DNA from: an uncultured Gammaproteobacteria bacterium
GTDB taxonomy: Bacteria; Pseudomonadota; Gammaproteobacteria; CAVZZX01
Reading direction: 5' to 3'
Length of the DNA stretch: 64,000 bases
Assembly: GCA_963779865.1 (NCBI GenBank)
Contig: CAVZZX010000003.1
Coordinates: 1,924,429 to 1,988,428 of the forward strand
The notes under the pieces are model-generated. The model made no database searches and was not told the origin of the DNA. It was given only the letters and a program-made list of their open reading frames with translations. Shown here piece after piece: positions 23,624 through 31,357 of the stretch. Every line of letters starts with the position of its first letter. The first letter of the stretch is position 1. The translations under genes and the position numbers were made by a program.

Positions 23624-24055
23624 ATGGCGACCAAAAAGAAGACCAGCAAGCGTACGGTAAGCAAGAAGAAGACGGCGGCGAAGAAGAAGACCGCGGCAAA
23701 GAAGACGGCGGCGAAGAAGACCACCACCGCAACACGGGTGACGGCCATCAAGGACCCGTACACCAAGTCCACCCTGTACAGCGATCTCGCCGAGCGGACC
23801 GGCCTGACGAAAAAGCAGGTCGATTCGGTCTTCGGAGAGCTGGGCAATATCGTCCAGGCTCACGTGAAGAAGAACGGCGCCGGCGTGTTCACGCTGCCGG
23901 GCATGCTGAAGATGAAGGTGGTGCGCAAGCCCGCGACCCGCGCCCGCAAGGGCACCAACCCCTTCACCGGCGAGCCCACCACGTTCAAGGCCAAGCCGGC
24001 CCGCAACGTGGTGAAGATCCAGCCGCTGAAGAATCTGAAGGAAATGGCGAAGTAG
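23624..24055 (+). CDS. HU-family DNA-binding protein with Lys/Ala-rich N-terminal tail
   Basis: N-terminal KKKT/AAKK repeats, C-terminal HU/IHF fold with DNA-binding arm (RKGTNPFTGEP). Confidence 0.7.
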   Translation: MATKKKTSKRTVSKKKTAAKKKTAAKKTAAKKTTTATRVTAIKDPYTKSTLYSDLAERTGLTKKQVDSVFGELGNIVQAHVKKNGAGVFTLPGMLKMKVVRKPATRARKGTNPFTGEPTTFKAKPARNVVKIQPLKNLKEMAK

Positions 24056-24900: not shown

Positions 24901-25524
24901 ATGCCGATGGGAGTCGCCTACCAGCCTCTGCCCTCGCGCCGCATGGCGCCGGGCACCCGTTACCACCGCCTGTTCCGGGCCGTGGTCGCGCCGCCGGCGA
25001 AGCTCTCCAGCCCCGCCACCGATGTGATGACCGACCTGCGCAAGGTCCCCGCCGTAACCATTGACGCCGACGAAGGTATCGAAGAGGCCAACAGCAAGAT
25101 GCTGGTCAATCGCATCCGGCTGCTGCTGGTGGTGGATGAGGGCGACCGCATCCTCGGCGTGATCACCGCCACCGACATCCTCGGCGAGAAGCCGGTGCGC
25201 CACCTGCAGCGCACGAGGGGCCGCCGCAGCGAGATCCTGGTCCGCGACATCATGACGGCGGAGCAGGAACTGGAAGTGATGGACCTGCACCAGGTCCAAC
25301 GCGCCCACGCCGGCCACATCGTGGCTCATCTACAGCAGGTGGGGCGCCAGCACGCGCTGGTGGTCGAGCGTGACGGCAACGGTCACGACGAGGTGGTCGG
25401 GCTGTTCTCCACCAGCCAGATCGGCCGGCAGTTGGGCGCCCCGGTCGCCACCACGGCGGTGGCGCGCACCTTTGCCGAGCGCGAGGCGGAGCTGATGGCG
25501 GGCGAGCGAGAGGCCCAGATCTGA
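24901..25524 (+). CDS. CBS domain pair protein
   Basis: Two CBS-like segments (LLVVDEGDRILGVITATDIL; LVVERDGNGHDEVVGLFSTSQI); gaggagg RBS. Confidence 0.6.
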   Translation: MPMGVAYQPLPSRRMAPGTRYHRLFRAVVAPPAKLSSPATDVMTDLRKVPAVTIDADEGIEEANSKMLVNRIRLLLVVDEGDRILGVITATDILGEKPVRHLQRTRGRRSEILVRDIMTAEQELEVMDLHQVQRAHAGHIVAHLQQVGRQHALVVERDGNGHDEVVGLFSTSQIGRQLGAPVATTAVARTFAEREAELMAGEREAQI

Positions 25525-25612
25525 GCCGCCCCGGCGGCGCGTCGGCGCCGCCGGGGCCCTGCCCATCCCTATACGCCGGGCCACGCGCCGGGCGCCGCCC
25601 TGCCGGCGCGAA

Positions 25613-26170
25613 CTACCAGCGCAGATGAACGCCGACCGTGGTGGCCACGTCGATGTTCACCTCCGGGCCGTTCTTGAGGTCCGCCGAGATATCGTGGCGT
25701 TCGACGTACACGTTCGCCTGCGGCATCAACTGGTAGCTCACGCGCGCGGCGAGTTCGGTCAGCCCGTCCGCATCGCCGAAGGAAACGATGCGCGGTGCGT
25801 AATAGGCATGTCCCCCGACACCCAGACCGTGCCAGTTCTGGGGCGCATACATGAAGCGGCCGCCCAGGGCCAGTCCGCCGAGTTCGTTCGGTCCGGTGTC
25901 CACGTAGTAGAAGCGGCCGCCGATGCCCAACTCGAGCGGACTCTGCCAGGAATCGTTGTATACGAGCATCCCTGCATCCAGAAGCACGTCATCGTCCGTG
26001 TCGTACAACAGCCCGCCTTCGACCTCCACTCGCCCGTACTGCTGCCCCCACATCGGGGTGGCGTAGCGCACGCGCGCGGTCTCGTCGTTGAGCGAAAGCT
26101 CCAGCGACTGGGCATGGGCGGCGCCGGCGGCCAACAGGGCCAGTCCGGCGAATAACGGATGAAAACGCAT
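25613..26170 (-). CDS. Outer-membrane beta-barrel protein (YfaZ-like)
   Basis: Signal peptide LLAAGAAHA, alternating beta-strand pattern, C-terminal aromatic residue. Confidence 0.5.
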   Translation of the reverse strand: MRFHPLFAGLALLAAGAAHAQSLELSLNDETARVRYATPMWGQQYGRVEVEGGLLYDTDDDVLLDAGMLVYNDSWQSPLELGIGGRFYYVDTGPNELGGLALGGRFMYAPQNWHGLGVGGHAYYAPRIVSFGDADGLTELAARVSYQLMPQANVYVERHDISADLKNGPEVNIDVATTVGVHLRW

Positions 26171-26260
26171 GTGAGGCTCCCGTATTGCTGCAGTGACGGC
26201 ACCGGCTGCGGCGCCCGGCGTATCATATCGACTCCGCGCCGCCTTGGCACCTCGCCGCGT

Positions 26261-27220
26261 TCACCGTTTGAGGATGCGTTGCAGAGTATCGCGGTAGCGA
26301 TCGAGGTGGGCGTCGCCGGCGGCCAGGGCACGGCGGGCGTAGACTTCGGCCGCCGTCCAACGGCCGCGGTCGGCCAGCACGCTGGCCAGATTGTTCAACG
26401 CCGGGGCATAGTCCGGCGCACGCTCGATCAGGCGTCGATAGGCCTGTTCGGCACGCTCCAGATCGCCGGCGCGGTAATAGGCGTTGCCCAGCCCCATGGC
26501 GGCGATGCGGCTCTCCGGCCAGCGCGCCAGGGCCCCCGCATAGGCGGGGATCGCGGCGGTGGCGTCCCCACCCTCTTCCAGGGCCGCCACAGCAGCCAGA
26601 TACGGGCTCGGCGACGCGCTCACCGGCAGCGTGCCCGGCGACAGGGCAAGCAGGGCCCAATGCCCCCCGCGCGCCCAGGTGCGCTCGAACAGCGCCAGCG
26701 TCTCGCGGTGTCGACGCTCGGTGCCCGAACGCAGCACCAGCACACCGTCCTGCAGGTCGTAGCCAACCACCACCGCATAGTGCCAGCGCGGCAGCCAGCT
26801 CAACCCCAGGTTCTGCAGCACCAGCACCGGATGTCCCGCGGCGACTTCCGCGAGCAGGTCTTTGAGGTGCGGCGGCAGCACGTAGGCGACGCGGCCCTGG
26901 GCACGCGCCGCCGCCACCAGCTCGAGCTGCAGGCTCCCCTTGCGGGCGGGCACGTAGACCGCCGGCGTGAGCTGCTCGGGCTGCACGTGCAGCCCGCTCC
27001 AGTCGAGCACCGTGGCCAGGGCGGCCGGGCCGCACTGATGCAAGGTCTGCGGGAAGAAGGGCACGTCGGTGAGCTCCGCGCGCGGCGCCAGGCCCGGAGG
27101 CGGCGCGCTCCGCAGGTGCGCGCTCTGCGGCGCGCTGGCGCAGCCGCCCAGGAGCAACAGCAAGAGTATCCACAGCAGACCGCCCGGACGCAGCCGGGCG
27201 GTCGGGGGCGAGGCGAACAC
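26261..27220 (-). CDS. PA2778-family cysteine peptidase-like lipoprotein with TPR region
   Basis: Lipobox LLGGC, C39-like peptidase pattern (QCGPAALATVL...HYAVVVGY), C-terminal TPR-like repeats. Confidence 0.55.
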   Translation of the reverse strand: MFASPPTARLRPGGLLWILLLLLLGGCASAPQSAHLRSAPPPGLAPRAELTDVPFFPQTLHQCGPAALATVLDWSGLHVQPEQLTPAVYVPARKGSLQLELVAAARAQGRVAYVLPPHLKDLLAEVAAGHPVLVLQNLGLSWLPRWHYAVVVGYDLQDGVLVLRSGTERRHRETLALFERTWARGGHWALLALSPGTLPVSASPSPYLAAVAALEEGGDATAAIPAYAGALARWPESRIAAMGLGNAYYRAGDLERAEQAYRRLIERAPDYAPALNNLASVLADRGRWTAAEVYARRALAAGDAHLDRYRDTLQRILKR

Positions 27221-27233
27221 CCTTATCGCAGCC

Positions 27234-27638
27234 TCACTGCACGGTCTTCTTCACGAACGGAAACACGTCGGTGTAGCCGAGGATGTCCGTCGCCAACAGC
27301 ACCAGAAACACGAATACCGCTGCCCCGAGCAGATCACCGCCGGCGGGCATGTCCTGCATGCGCTGCGCCAGCGACTGCGCCTCCCGGTCGCTGAGCCGGG
27401 CGATACGCGCCTGGGCCTGTTGCGGGTCCACGCCCCATTGGACGAGCTGCTTCTGCACGGCATCGCGGGCGAGAAAGGCGTTGAGCTGGGCACGGCTTTG
27501 CTGCGCCGCCGGCGCCTGGGCCAGCAGCTCACTGGTGCCCACGACCGACGCGGCGGCGGGCGAGGCCATGGAGGCGAGCACCAGGGCCGCCGCGGACAGA
27601 TGCACCCAGAGGCGGGCACGACGTCGACACAATTCCAT
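27234..27638 (-). CDS. PA2779-family protein (signal peptide + C-terminal TM anchor)
   Basis: About 134 aa, N-terminal signal, helical middle, C-terminal hydrophobic segment; 13 nt upstream of PA2778-like gene. Confidence 0.5.
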   Translation of the reverse strand: MELCRRRARLWVHLSAAALVLASMASPAAASVVGTSELLAQAPAAQQSRAQLNAFLARDAVQKQLVQWGVDPQQAQARIARLSDREAQSLAQRMQDMPAGGDLLGAAVFVFLVLLATDILGYTDVFPFVKKTVQ

Positions 27639-27724
27639 AAGGGCCTCCCTAGTCGGTTGCTTGCTGTGGATTTGAGAAGAGCCAGGGTCGAAAACGGAAG
27701 TGTGCACCACGGGCGCAGCGCGCG

Positions 27725-28669
27725 CTAGGTGTGTAAACCCACCAGGTTGTTCACGATAAGCCGTGAGATCGGAGGCCGATAGCCGAGGCTGGCGTGCGGT
27801 CGGTGCCAGTTGTACTGATGCAGCCAGGGCAGGAGGTGCTCGGAGCGCTGGTCGGAGGAGACGTAGGCGCGGGCATAGGCCCATTCGCGTAGCGCGGTCT
27901 GGATGAAGCGCTCGGCCTTGCCATTGGTGCGCGGGGTGTAGGGCTGCGTGCGCAGATGGCGCAGCCCCAGACGACGGCACAGGCGCGCAAAGCGCCGGGA
28001 CAGATAGCAGGCGCCGTTGTCGGTCAACACCCGCTGGAAGCGGATGCCCAGTCCCCGGTAGTAGCGCAGCACCTGCAGCAGAAAGGCGCAGGCGCTGCGG
28101 CCGGTCTCATCGGGGTGGATGGCGCCGAAGGCGACTCGGGAGTGGTCATCGATGGCCACGTGGACATACTCCCAGCCGGCCCCGCGGGAGCACTGGCGTC
28201 GGTCCTCGGTGGCGCGGTGCCCCGGGACGCGAAAGCGCCCGAGTTTCTTGATGTCCAGGTGCAGCAGCCCGCCGGGCTGGGCGTATTCGTAGCGCCGTAC
28301 CGGCGGGGCGGGCTCGAGCTGGGCCAGGCGATTGAGCCCCATGCGGCGCAGCCAGCGCCCCACCGTGCTGTGACCGATCCCCAGCCGCTGGCTGATCTGG
28401 CGGTAGGTCTGACGGGCCCGGCGGCATTCGACCAGCTGGGCCCGGCGCTGCGAGCAGAGTGCGTGCGGGCTGTGATGGGGACGCGAGGGGCGATTCGCCA
28501 GGCCCGTCGGCCCCTCCTCGCGGTAGCGCTGGAGCCACTTGTAGGCGGTGCGCACGCTCACGCCGGCCGCCTGGGCCGCCTCGCGGGGGCGCAGGCCCTG
28601 CTCGAGGATGCGACGCACCAACAGCTCTCGACCATGGACGGTTAATCGGGCATTTTTATGGTTGTTCAT
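27725..28669 (-). CDS. IS481 family transposase
   Basis: N-terminal HTH, rve integrase core domain (DDE); stop codon formed at flanking CTAG. Confidence 0.85.
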   Translation of the reverse strand: MNNHKNARLTVHGRELLVRRILEQGLRPREAAQAAGVSVRTAYKWLQRYREEGPTGLANRPSRPHHSPHALCSQRRAQLVECRRARQTYRQISQRLGIGHSTVGRWLRRMGLNRLAQLEPAPPVRRYEYAQPGGLLHLDIKKLGRFRVPGHRATEDRRQCSRGAGWEYVHVAIDDHSRVAFGAIHPDETGRSACAFLLQVLRYYRGLGIRFQRVLTDNGACYLSRRFARLCRRLGLRHLRTQPYTPRTNGKAERFIQTALREWAYARAYVSSDQRSEHLLPWLHQYNWHRPHASLGYRPPISRLIVNNLVGLHT

Positions 28670-28753
28670 TCGGGGCTCCCGGAGGTTGGATTTGGTTTGC
28701 ACCTCCAGTCTTCCGGGTAAGCCCCGAGTGAACAACCTACTGAGAGATCACAG
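27729..28753 (-). mobile_element. IS481-family insertion sequence
   Basis: Single DDE transposase ORF; imperfect about 30-bp terminal inverted repeats sharing AGGTTGTTCAC; flanked by CTAG on both sides (27725-27728 and 28754-28757). Confidence 0.8.
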
Positions 28754-29716
28754 CTAGGCATTGTGCTCGTCGGGCGGAGGGCAGGCCGGGGCGCCCGCCA
28801 TCCGCCCCATCTCGCCGAGCATGCGTTCGAGCTGCGCCCGCGAGTCGGGAAAGCGGCCCGCCTGGTGCAGCTCATGGCGGCGGTTGTGGGCGACCTGATC
28901 GATGCGGTCACGTACGTCGGGGTTCTCCTGGATGAAGGCGAGAAACGGTGCACAATCGATACGCAGGACCTCCAGGTCGCTGCTTGCGGTCACCGTGGCG
29001 GCGCGCGGCGCGCCCGTGAGCAGCGACCACTCGCCGAAGTAGTCGCCGGGCCCGAGCAGGGCGAGGTTGAGTGCAGGCCCGCCGGCCCGGTGCGAGACGC
29101 GCGCCGCGCCGTAGACGATGACGAACAGCGCATCGCCGGGCTCGCCCTCCACGACGATCGGCGTGCCGGCGCCGAAACACAGCAGCGCGGCCTGCTCCAG
29201 CAGTTGGTCGCGCGCCTCTTCGGGCAGATAACGCAGCAGCGGCACCGCACGCAGGCCGGTATGCAGGACCCGGCTTCGATAGCGTTCGAGCACCCCCTCG
29301 CGCACGCGCGGGTTGCGGGCAATCAGCGTGGCGAGCACAGCGCCGGGGATTTCCAGCAGCAGGGTTTCGCGGCTGGCGGTGGCCGTGGACAGGCGCGCCG
29401 CGCCAAACAATGCCCCGATTTCCCCGCACAGCTCGCCACAGCCCAGGCGCGCCAGACGCACCGGCTCGCCGTCGACCACTTCGGACACGGCCACCTCTCC
29501 GGAGAGCAGGAGGAAGGCACGCTCGTCGCGCTCGTGCTGGCGGCAAAGCACCGCGTCTGCGGCCACCCGGCGCAGCACGCCGTGCTCCACCAACAGCTCG
29601 CGATCGGCGTCGCTCAACAGGGCGCCGAAGGCGGACGGCCGGCTCAGCACCCGCTGTACGAGCTGCAGCAACTGCGCCGCACCGGGAGCCGCACGATCGT
29701 CGAGTTTGTGCGCCAT
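28754..29716 (-). CDS. Protein with two cyclic-nucleotide-binding domains
   Basis: Two CAP_ED-like segments (GEVAVSEVV..., FGEWSLLTGAPRAATV); stop codon lies in the CTAG at the IS boundary. Confidence 0.6.
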   Translation of the reverse strand: MAHKLDDRAAPGAAQLLQLVQRVLSRPSAFGALLSDADRELLVEHGVLRRVAADAVLCRQHERDERAFLLLSGEVAVSEVVDGEPVRLARLGCGELCGEIGALFGAARLSTATASRETLLLEIPGAVLATLIARNPRVREGVLERYRSRVLHTGLRAVPLLRYLPEEARDQLLEQAALLCFGAGTPIVVEGEPGDALFVIVYGAARVSHRAGGPALNLALLGPGDYFGEWSLLTGAPRAATVTASSDLEVLRIDCAPFLAFIQENPDVRDRIDQVAHNRRHELHQAGRFPDSRAQLERMLGEMGRMAGAPACPPPDEHNA

Positions 29717-29893: not shown

Positions 29894-31357
29894 ATGTTCA
29901 TTCCGCTCCACCGCAAGCTGGACCTGCGCAACCCGCCACTGGCCACCGTCGCCCTGATTTTGGCCAACCTTGCGGTATTCCTGTTCTGGCAGCACAACGA
30001 TGCCGCCCTGGAGCAGGCCGCGGTCGACTACTACCTGCATTCGGATCTGCCGGCGCAGGAGCTGCCGCGCTACCGCGACTACCTCCGGCACCATGCCGAG
30101 CAGGGCCCGGCCGCAGGACAGTCTGCGCTGCTCCTGCAGCGGATGCTCGCCGACGCCCCGTTCATGGCCGCGCTGCGCGACGGTGCGCTAGTCACGCCCC
30201 GGGCCCCCGGCTATGCACAGTGGCAGCGCCAGCGCGCGCAGTTCGAGGCGCTGCTGCAGCAATCCACCGCCTGGCGCTACGGCCTCAAGCCGGCGGCGCT
30301 CTCGCCCGCGGCACTGGGCCTGCACATGTTCCTGCACGCCGATCTGCCCCATCTGCTCGGCAACATGCTGTTCCTGTTCCTGTTCGGATTCGTGCTCGAG
30401 GGGGTGCTCGGCTGGCGCCTGCTGCTCGGCGTCTACCTGCTCGCCGGGCTCGCCTCGGCCGGCGTCGACATCCTGGTGCGGCCCGACAGCCTCGCCCCCG
30501 GGATAGGCGCCTCGGGCGCCATCGCCGGGCTGGCCGGCGTCTATACGGCCCTGTTCGGGCGCCGCCGCATCCACTTCTTCGTGGCGCTGGGGGTGTATTT
30601 CGATTACGTCCGTGCGCCCGCGGTGGTGCTGCTGCCGGTGTGGCTTGCCTACGAGGGACTGCTGCAGGTTCTGGCGCCGGGGGCGAGCAATCGCATGGTC
30701 CACATCGGCGGCCTGCTCGCCGGCGCCGCCATTGGCCTGGGTGCCCGCCACCTGCTCTCCGAGCGCGGCCACGACACGCTGGAGGCCGAGGCGAAACGCG
30801 ACGCCCGCAACCGGCAATATACCGAAGCGCTCGATCTGATCGCCGACATGGAGCTGGACGCGGCGCGCCGCCTGCTCGAAGAGCTCCATGCGCGCGACCC
30901 CGCCGACCGTGACGTGCTGCTCCAGCTCTATCACATTGCCCGCTTTGACCCGAGCTCGGCCGCCTATCACGACTATACGCACCGGCTGCTGGCCCTGCCG
31001 GGCAGCGACCCCTCGACTCTGCGCCTGGCGCACGACATCTACGAGGAATACATCCGCGATGCCCGGCCCGCGTTCCGCTTCACCGGCGGCGACCTGCTCG
31101 GGCTCGCCATCCGCTTCGCCGGCGGCGGCTATGCCGCGAGTGCCGAACGCATCGTCGCCTGGTTCCTGCAGCACCGACGCGAGCATCCGCGCAATGCCGA
31201 AGCCCTGCTCGCGCTCGCTGGCGGCTTTCGCCGCGAGGGTGACGAGGACAAGCACACCCGGGCGCTCGAGCTGCTGATGCGGCTCTACCCGGAAAGCCCG
31301 CAGGCATTGCTGGTGCGTACCGGCACGCGTGAGCCGGCCGGCTCAGGCGCTGCGTGA
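29894..31357 (+). CDS. Rhomboid family intramembrane serine protease with C-terminal TPR-like domain
   Basis: Rhomboid GxSG (GASGAIAG) and downstream His in TM helices; soluble helical C-terminal region. Confidence 0.65.
   Translation: MFIPLHRKLDLRNPPLATVALILANLAVFLFWQHNDAALEQAAVDYYLHSDLPAQELPRYRDYLRHHAEQGPAAGQSALLLQRMLADAPFMAALRDGALVTPRAPGYAQWQRQRAQFEALLQQSTAWRYGLKPAALSPAALGLHMFLHADLPHLLGNMLFLFLFGFVLEGVLGWRLLLGVYLLAGLASAGVDILVRPDSLAPGIGASGAIAGLAGVYTALFGRRRIHFFVALGVYFDYVRAPAVVLLPVWLAYEGLLQVLAPGASNRMVHIGGLLAGAAIGLGARHLLSERGHDTLEAEAKRDARNRQYTEALDLIADMELDAARRLLEELHARDPADRDVLLQLYHIARFDPSSAAYHDYTHRLLALPGSDPSTLRLAHDIYEEYIRDARPAFRFTGGDLLGLAIRFAGGGYAASAERIVAWFLQHRREHPRNAEALLALAGGFRREGDEDKHTRALELLMRLYPESPQALLVRTGTREPAGSGAA

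Follow-up and report, generated by a model that had tools for sequence, protein, structure and literature searches.

The stretch analyzed here, hereafter the window, comprises 64,000 nucleotides from an uncultured Gammaproteobacteria bacterium (assembly GCA_963779865.1, contig CAVZZX010000003.1, positions 1,924,429 to 1,988,428 of the forward strand), and our subject is a group of three envelope protein genes at positions 25613-27638. Two of them, encoding a small protein of the PA2779 family and a cysteine peptidase lipoprotein of the PA2778 family, constitute the functional unit, a two-gene envelope cassette in the order PA2779 > PA2778; the third, encoding a YfaZ-family outer membrane protein, is a neighbor outside the cassette. 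We draw the unit in this way because the first two genes are adjacent at nearly all PA2778 loci compared, because YfaZ is seldom near them, and because YfaZ is kept where the pair is missing. As to function, we give an even chance to the proposal that PA2778 cleaves PA2779 after Gly101, parting a periplasmic domain from a membrane stub.

The genomic evidence comes from 80 loci with a PA2778 homologue in Gamma-, Beta-, and Zetaproteobacteria and in Desulfobacterales metagenome-assembled genomes (MAGs). Neighbors were detected by iterated hidden Markov model (HMM) searches of six-frame open reading frames (ORFs) at these loci and by all-against-all clustering of the neighborhood ORFs. A PA2779 homologue lies immediately upstream on the same strand at 78 of the 80 loci, which strongly supports the idea of the initial annotation that the peptidase and its small partner work together; the two exceptions are a contig edge (L073) and a locus with a different gene upstream (L068). 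In the window, the PA2778 start follows the PA2779 stop after 13 nt. The same co-occurrence analysis went against the other part of that annotation, an envelope trio, since just 2 of 80 other genomes (L025 and L035) have YfaZ close to PA2778. No conserved third gene was found at these loci, and no other gene occurs in more than 11 of them. Recurrent neighbors found at 5 to 11 loci (a GGDEF protein, an ABC ATPase, ZapA, thymidylate synthase, and a peptidyl-prolyl isomerase) were rejected as partners, being generic and varying in position. Nor is a transporter, an ABC exporter, or any other partner conserved beside the pair in the 80 neighborhoods, leaving the suggestion of an export module with no evidence.

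The pair is common. Scanning species genomes for the peptidase motifs confirmed at least 595 matching stretches, the PA2779 tail described below is found in 1175 clusters at 50% identity, and the families include PA2778 and PA2779 of Pseudomonas aeruginosa. Some loci depart from the simple arrangement. The exception L068 (5542-6939), from a deltaproteobacterial MAG, encodes a PA2778 with a lipobox and no PA2779 upstream. Two others, L005 (5057-5961) and L010 (5128-5971), carry two PA2779 genes in tandem upstream of one PA2778, meaning that the partner gene can duplicate without duplication of the peptidase gene. At L034 (5968-6915) and L052 (5869-6876), PA2778 is split by an in-frame stop, indicative of either a pseudogene or a sequencing error.

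The three ORFs at 25613-27638 are co-oriented on the minus strand, and proteins identical to their products (134, 319, and 185 aa) have been called in the public NCBI/ENA annotation. First in the cassette is the gene at 27234..27638, which encodes a 134-aa protein matching NCBIfam NF033919 (PA2779_fam) with 132.2 bits against a cut-off of 40 and Pfam DUF6627 (PF20332) with 112.4 bits against 27. The second (26261..27220), with a GTG start, encodes a 319-aa protein that scores 344.7 bits (cut-off 150) with NCBIfam NF033920 (C39_PA2778_fam), covering profile positions 1-253 of 255, and 32.4 (cut-off 24) with Pfam Peptidase_C39_2 (PF13529); several TPR models also score above their Pfam cut-offs. 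The product of the third gene (25613..26170), 185 aa, matches Pfam YfaZ (PF07437) with 42.6 bits (cut-off 23; E 6.5e-11) over profile positions 7-162 of 180 and has no NCBIfam match. PADLOC defense models matched none of the three proteins. The initial annotation, made from the sequence without database searches, had thus correctly placed three co-oriented ORFs, assigned all three families, described PA2779 as a protein with a signal peptide and a C-terminal anchor, and recognized PA2778 as a lipoprotein with a C39-like cysteine peptidase pattern and TPR repeats. It had also called the families functionally uncharacterized, and this holds: PA2778 and PA2779 are already curated and named, and the locus here is a typical member.

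PA2779 is translated from an ATG with the Shine-Dalgarno sequence GGGAGG 6 nt ahead of it. Residues 1-30 (27549..27638) form a Sec signal peptide with a predicted signal peptidase I site at A28-A29-A30|S31; alignments of homologues show an invariant A30 and a conserved A-x-A pattern. In the AlphaFold2 (AF2) model, whose overall predicted local distance difference test (pLDDT) score is 72, a helix spans residues 2-24 and is followed by a disordered stretch, 27-34. The predicted periplasmic domain, residues 31-96 (27351..27548), consists of four short helices (42-56, 59-67, 72-81, and 84-96), modeled with pLDDT 85-89 over residues 50-90, and this helical region is moderately conserved among homologues. 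When the model was compared with PDB by Foldseek, no match was better than E 2.8, and hence no structural relative was found.

The remainder of the protein, residues 102-134 (27237..27335), is predicted to be a membrane helix with a basic tail, carrying the conserved sequence FLVLLxTDxxGxTDVFPFVKK. Kyte-Doolittle hydrophobic windows reach positions 109-111, the AF2 helix covers 102-120, and F111, L112-L115, T117, D118, G121, T123, and F126-V129 are invariant in 31 aligned homologues. The polar residues T-D (117-118) and T-D (123-124), at about 27267-27290 of the window, are conserved inside or just past the predicted membrane helix. Such conserved polar residues are atypical of a simple anchor and hint at a specific intramembrane partner.

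Between the periplasmic domain and the membrane helix lies P98-A99-G100-G101 (27336..27347), a double-glycine-type site with a predicted scissile bond at G101|D102. The motif falls within a loop of the AF2 model (97-101) that connects helix 84-96 to helix 102-120, one to four residues away from the membrane helix, and the helix ahead of it is amphipathic, with hydrophobic residues at -5, -8, and -12. Motif statistics were drawn from 200 non-redundant homologues, 194 of which have the searched motif, and alignments of 31 and 81 homologues were examined alongside. Among the 194 sequences with [L/M]-P-A-G-[G/S/A], the Pro is present in 100%, the Ala in 99%, and the Gly in 100%, and the next residue is Gly in 72%, Ser in 15%, Ala in 9%, and Glu in 2%. 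Across 80 PA2779 homologues, mean pairwise identity reaches 78% in the five residues of the motif, compared with 36% in the periplasmic region and 39% in the helix and tail, so that only the PAGG loop stands out across these diverse genomes. The membrane helix was also considered as the best-conserved part of PA2779 and rejected, as that is true among closer relatives only.

PA2778 begins with a lipoprotein signal peptide (27140..27220) ending in the lipobox L-G-G-C27, with the Cys codon at 27140-27142 and Ala at position +2. C27 is invariant in 29 aligned homologues; of the 80 loci, 73 had a scored lipobox and four more a visible one, and among the 73 the +2 position is occupied by Ala 54 times and by Asp never. 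The C39-type papain-like peptidase domain follows at residues 46-200 (26621..27085). Its oxyanion residue Gln58 (27047-27049), Cys63 in QCGPAALA (27032-27034), and His147 in WHYAVVVG (26780-26782) are invariant in the same 29 homologues, and no intact homologue among the 80 loci lacks the catalytic Cys or His. The two residues on which the initial call of a peptidase depended are therefore in place, and the conservation of Gln, Cys, and His argues that PA2778 is probably an active enzyme. Residues 204-318 (26267..26611) form three TPR repeats, modeled by AF2 as helical repeats and presumed to be a partner-binding module. The whole model has a mean pLDDT of 92.3. Residues 31-50, just past the lipid-bearing Cys, are ordered in it (pLDDT 94-96), suggesting that the catalytic domain would be held near whichever membrane carries PA2778.

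The assignment to C39 was examined at the level of distant homology as well. A profile of the peptidase domain retrieved only C39 proteins from PDB, as weak matches, with Cys63 aligned to the Cys of the C-G-P-A motif of ComA, and the domain has the three-dimensional fold of C39 enzymes. The peptidase domain as a single-sequence search gave no match, and the score of PA2778 against the canonical C39 model PF03412 was 17.2 bits, below the cut-off of 22. A full-length PA2778 profile searched against PDB was swamped by TPR proteins and was discarded as uninformative.

What does this peptidase act on? The proposal that it cleaves PA2779 arises because the partner carries an invariant C39-type site and its sole constant companion, which shares its export destination, is an enzyme with the C39 fold. 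GS sites are among those accepted by the C39 family, and in double-glycine leaders an amphipathic helix precedes the cleavage site. C39 peptidases usually cleave at a GG motif and sometimes at GA (PMC5557850), and FapD sets a precedent for a Sec-exported periplasmic C39 protease (PMC5557850). The proposed pathway would run as follows. PA2779 would be exported by Sec, lose its signal peptide after A30, and stay anchored in the inner membrane through its C-terminal helix, leaving the KK tail on the cytoplasmic side and displaying a four-helix domain of about 65 residues in the periplasm. PA2778 would be a lipid-anchored periplasmic enzyme, its C39 papain-like domain fused to three TPR repeats that most likely hold the helical domain of PA2779. 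It would then cut past the P-A-G-[G/S/A] loop, here at G101|D102, yielding a soluble periplasmic fragment of about 70 aa and a 33-aa membrane stub. We infer from sequences and models the role of PA2779 as substrate, the position of the cut (G101|D102), how the protein lies in the membrane, and which fragment is functional.

Several observations weigh against cleavage of PA2779 by PA2778. Full-text literature searches yielded no functional study of PA2778, PA2779, or DUF6627, and those on periplasmic C39 lipoproteins yielded only FapD and general reviews. The third triad residue of C39 enzymes is usually an Asp located 16 residues past the His; judged by spacing, no counterpart of it is evident in PA2778, where the pattern-equivalent position appears to be the invariant Ser165-Gly166. 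In canonical double-glycine leaders the hydrophobic positions are -4, -7, -12, and -15, from which the spacing of -5, -8, and -12 in PA2779 is shifted, with a proline at -4. By the +2 rule of Escherichia coli, a residue other than Asp after the lipid-bearing Cys directs a lipoprotein to the outer membrane, and the Ala of PA2778 would accordingly predict outer membrane residence, far from a site at the surface of the inner membrane. Finally, about 2% of PA2779 homologues have Glu at -1, and a few have PAAG or PLGEG.

The best-surviving alternative, in our view unlikely, is that PA2779 stays uncleaved as a stable membrane partner of the peptidase, serving as an anchor, a regulator, or a pseudo-substrate inhibitor, while the substrates of PA2778 are encoded elsewhere. 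Adjacency shows partnership and not proteolysis, the TPR domain could just dock PA2779, the conserved polar residues T117, D118, and T123 in the helix are odd for a disposable anchor, and PA2778 has no canonical third catalytic residue that we could find. However, the most conserved element of PA2779 is an exposed-loop G-[G/S/A] site of the kind cut by C39 enzymes, and the invariant Gln, Cys, and His point to an enzyme that is probably active.

Cleavage at the same bond could also serve the opposite end of the protein. The pair would then carry out a periplasmic version of leader-GlyGly-core maturation, with the 33-aa single-helix membrane peptide D102-Q134 as the functional product. The Sec signal and the helical domain would merely insert the C-terminal segment N-out and present it to the protease, and this peptide, with its FLVLLxTDxxGxTDVFPFVKK sequence, would act on a membrane partner. 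We consider this distinctly improbable.

Sortase-like processing is doubtful in a similar way, at a slightly lower estimate. Here the tail of PA2779 would be removed via an acyl-enzyme and the periplasmic domain transferred to an acceptor in the envelope, for example a lipid, a lipoprotein, or peptidoglycan. The C-terminal part of PA2779 does have a tripartite layout (motif, then hydrophobic helix, then KK tail) that copies the LPXTG, PEP-CTERM, and GlyGly-CTERM signals, and PA2778 is a membrane-tethered Cys/His peptidase. True sorting signals, however, decorate many different passengers. A profile of the last 51 residues of PA2779, searched against 1.84 billion representatives, matched the 1175 clusters mentioned above, and the best 150 of these are all proteins of 54-210 aa with the tail at their C-terminus; as far as these best 150 of 1175 matches show, the tail belongs to one protein family of about 130 aa rather than being a general sorting tag. 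The window holds one copy of the tail, other loci hold tandem duplicates at most, and we know of no report of transpeptidation by C39 enzymes.

A single module of all three genes for envelope processing or export, to which the YfaZ barrel would contribute the outer membrane part, is very improbable. Its support is that the genes are co-oriented and adjacent here, in L082/L083, and in L025, and the evolution of the neighborhood offers a simpler account. We compared this side of the locus by exact-protein look-ups of five YfaZ relatives. The 84-86% relative (L082/L083) has the order of the window, cNMP-binding > PA2779 > PA2778 > YfaZ | CBS | HAD | HU. The 56-58% relatives L084-L087 have rhomboid | cNMP-binding > YfaZ | CBS | HU, with the pair cleanly absent; PA2779 and PA2778 have been lost there as a two-gene block, with YfaZ retained. 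The more distant L025, an Ectothiorhodospiraceae MAG, has the whole arrangement including the pair. Because the entire backbone is common to the window and L025, the YfaZ adjacency in both is the same evolutionary event, a single inherited arrangement of one clade. A still more distant YfaZ (L088) lies beside relA and ruvCAB. A scan of metagenome contigs with the YfaZ protein gave 48 pattern matches, none of which was confirmed.

The yfaZ gene may also be transcribed separately. The 90-bp spacer between PA2778 and YfaZ contains a minus-strand sigma-70-like promoter match to the consensus, GTGCCA-17-TATGAT (26222..26250). It is the sole such match in 25300-29000 (3.7 kb), where shuffled sequences predict 0.1, suggesting that yfaZ has its own promoter. 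Its product carries a signal peptide (AHA|Q), its last residue is aromatic (…LRW), and no sequence relative was found in PDB. The gene converges with the CBS gene, and between the two lies a GC-rich inverted repeat, GCCCCGGCGGCG … CGCCGCCGGGGC (25528-25557), without a T-run, which is likely a bidirectional terminator.

The least probable explanation, which we regard as close to negligible, is that PA2778 is a type VI secretion system (T6SS) toxin with its small neighbor as immunity protein or, in a variant, that the pair comprises the precursor of a bacteriocin and the protease that matures it. T6SS effectors, to our knowledge, are exported without Sec or lipoprotein signal peptides, whereas the conserved lipoprotein signal takes PA2778 out of the cytoplasm through the Sec/lipoprotein pathway; its genomic context is variable, the surroundings of the 80 loci include no conserved T6SS, ABC transporter, or immunity gene, and PADLOC found no match. 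The variant draws on the maturation of bacteriocins as the classic role of C39 enzymes, and is countered by the conservation of the tail across classes of Proteobacteria, unlike fast-evolving bacteriocins. The toxin idea goes back to a TraDIS screen (sequencing of transposon insertion sites) in P. aeruginosa, in which PA2778, located upstream of a small gene that showed depletion, was listed as a possible H1-T6SS toxin candidate, and the preprint took the candidate no further (bioRxiv 10.1101/733030).

Other genes surround the cassette and YfaZ. At 28754-29716 on the minus strand is a gene whose product has two cNMP-binding domains but lacks a DNA-binding domain. It adjoins a gene at 29894-31357 on the plus strand for a divergent rhomboid protease, whose 487 aa include a long C-terminal extension. 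A rhomboid gene is found at the same position in L082, L084, L086, and L025, whether or not the PA2779/PA2778 pair is present, and the cNMP-binding gene lies beside the rhomboid except in L086/L087. By analogy with GlyGly-CTERM and rhombosortase, this rhomboid protease, 2.2 kb off, was considered as the processing enzyme for PA2779 and rejected, since it is confined to the clade and kept where the pair has been lost. On the other side of YfaZ, at 23624-24055 on the plus strand, is a gene for an HU-type DNA-binding protein (its homologues match Pfam Bac_DNA_binding) with a Lys/Ala-rich, histone H1-like N-terminal tail of about 35 aa.

The upstream flank of PA2779 has been altered by a mobile element. 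An IS481-family insertion sequence (IS) of 1023 bp (27730..28752, minus strand) lies between the cNMP-binding gene and PA2779, bounded by the inverted repeats TGTG…AGGTTGTTCAC and by a 6-bp target duplication, CCTAGC, at 27724-27729 and 28753-28758. Its transposase matches LZ_Tnp_IS481 with 88.6 bits and also rve. The element sits exactly on the TAG stop of the cNMP-binding gene, 91 bp upstream of the PA2779 start, and the transposase reading frame terminates at the TAG of the duplicated target. The 86% relative L082 has no IS at this site and a spacer of 114 bp. The insertion is a recent event. The Logan contig L001, identical in sequence, breaks off 25 bp into the IS end. A break of this kind is what a multicopy repeat would produce, and it suggests that the genome contains several copies.

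Within the native spacer upstream of PA2779, a 20-bp box, GCCCGTGGTGCACACTTCCG (27695..27714, minus strand), is one base apart from its counterpart in L082 (GCCCGTGGTGCACA[C/G]TTCCG), and the remaining spacer has diverged in the alignment. The box is a possible regulatory site, either a promoter or an operator. In a study of strong constitutive promoters of Pseudomonas stutzeri, a PA2779-family gene appears in the promoter-screening table (PMC10155442), an entry that would fit an abundant gene product.

How does this cassette compare with known systems? The third gene of the window matches the E. coli/Klebsiella YfaZ model (PF07437) only distantly. The YfaZ family has been detected in the outer membrane proteome of Klebsiella pneumoniae and modeled on the 8-stranded barrels OmpX and Ail (PMC4404324), and its members show no consistent link with PA2778/PA2779 at the 80 loci or in L084-L088. 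Among peptidases, the Pfam match of PA2778 is to the Peptidase_C39_2 type (PF13529), represented by 3ERV, the crystal structure of a Bacillus anthracis protein; we found no description of a TPR fusion, a lipobox, or a PA2779-type partner for 3ERV-type peptidases.

The C39 domains of ABC exporters (PF03412), such as ComA, LahT150, and PCAT1, are cytoplasmic and fused to the transporter (PMC5557850, PMC10318531), whereas PA2778 is a stand-alone, Sec-exported lipoprotein with TPR repeats. Their cleavage site follows an N-terminal leader of 15-30 aa. PA2779, by contrast, has a Sec signal of its own, and its site would be close to the C-terminus, shortly ahead of a membrane helix. The subthreshold PF03412 score and the lack of an evident Asp at the triad position further set PA2778 apart from this group. 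Sortase/LPXTG, exosortase/PEP-CTERM, and rhombosortase/GlyGly-CTERM systems resemble the cassette in having a tripartite C-terminal signal beside a dedicated membrane-associated enzyme, and sortases share Cys/His chemistry with PA2778, but the enzyme folds differ. In those systems, moreover, the signals occur on many unrelated passengers per genome, while the PA2779 tail, judged by the 150 best of its 1175 matches, is restricted to a single small family.

A further likeness is to FapD of the Pseudomonas Fap amyloid system, which is also a Sec-exported, stand-alone periplasmic cysteine protease of the C39 type. Its active-site Cys is required for function, and its target "remains unclear" according to the authors (PMC5557850). 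FapD is encoded in the fapABCDEF amyloid operon together with the FapF barrel, and the PA2778 locus has no amyloid genes; unlike FapD, PA2778 has a lipobox, TPR repeats, and a single obvious candidate substrate next door. We found no defined substrate or cleavage site for a periplasmic C39 peptidase in the literature searched. If the soluble domain is the product of PA2779 cleavage, such a peptidase would gain both. Likewise, a Cys63-dependent cut at G101|D102, if it occurs, would provide a substrate for the periplasmic C39 class that the FapD authors called not yet characterized. What makes the finding valuable is that it offers, for a module found in many genomes, a precise hypothesis of cleavage that can be tested.

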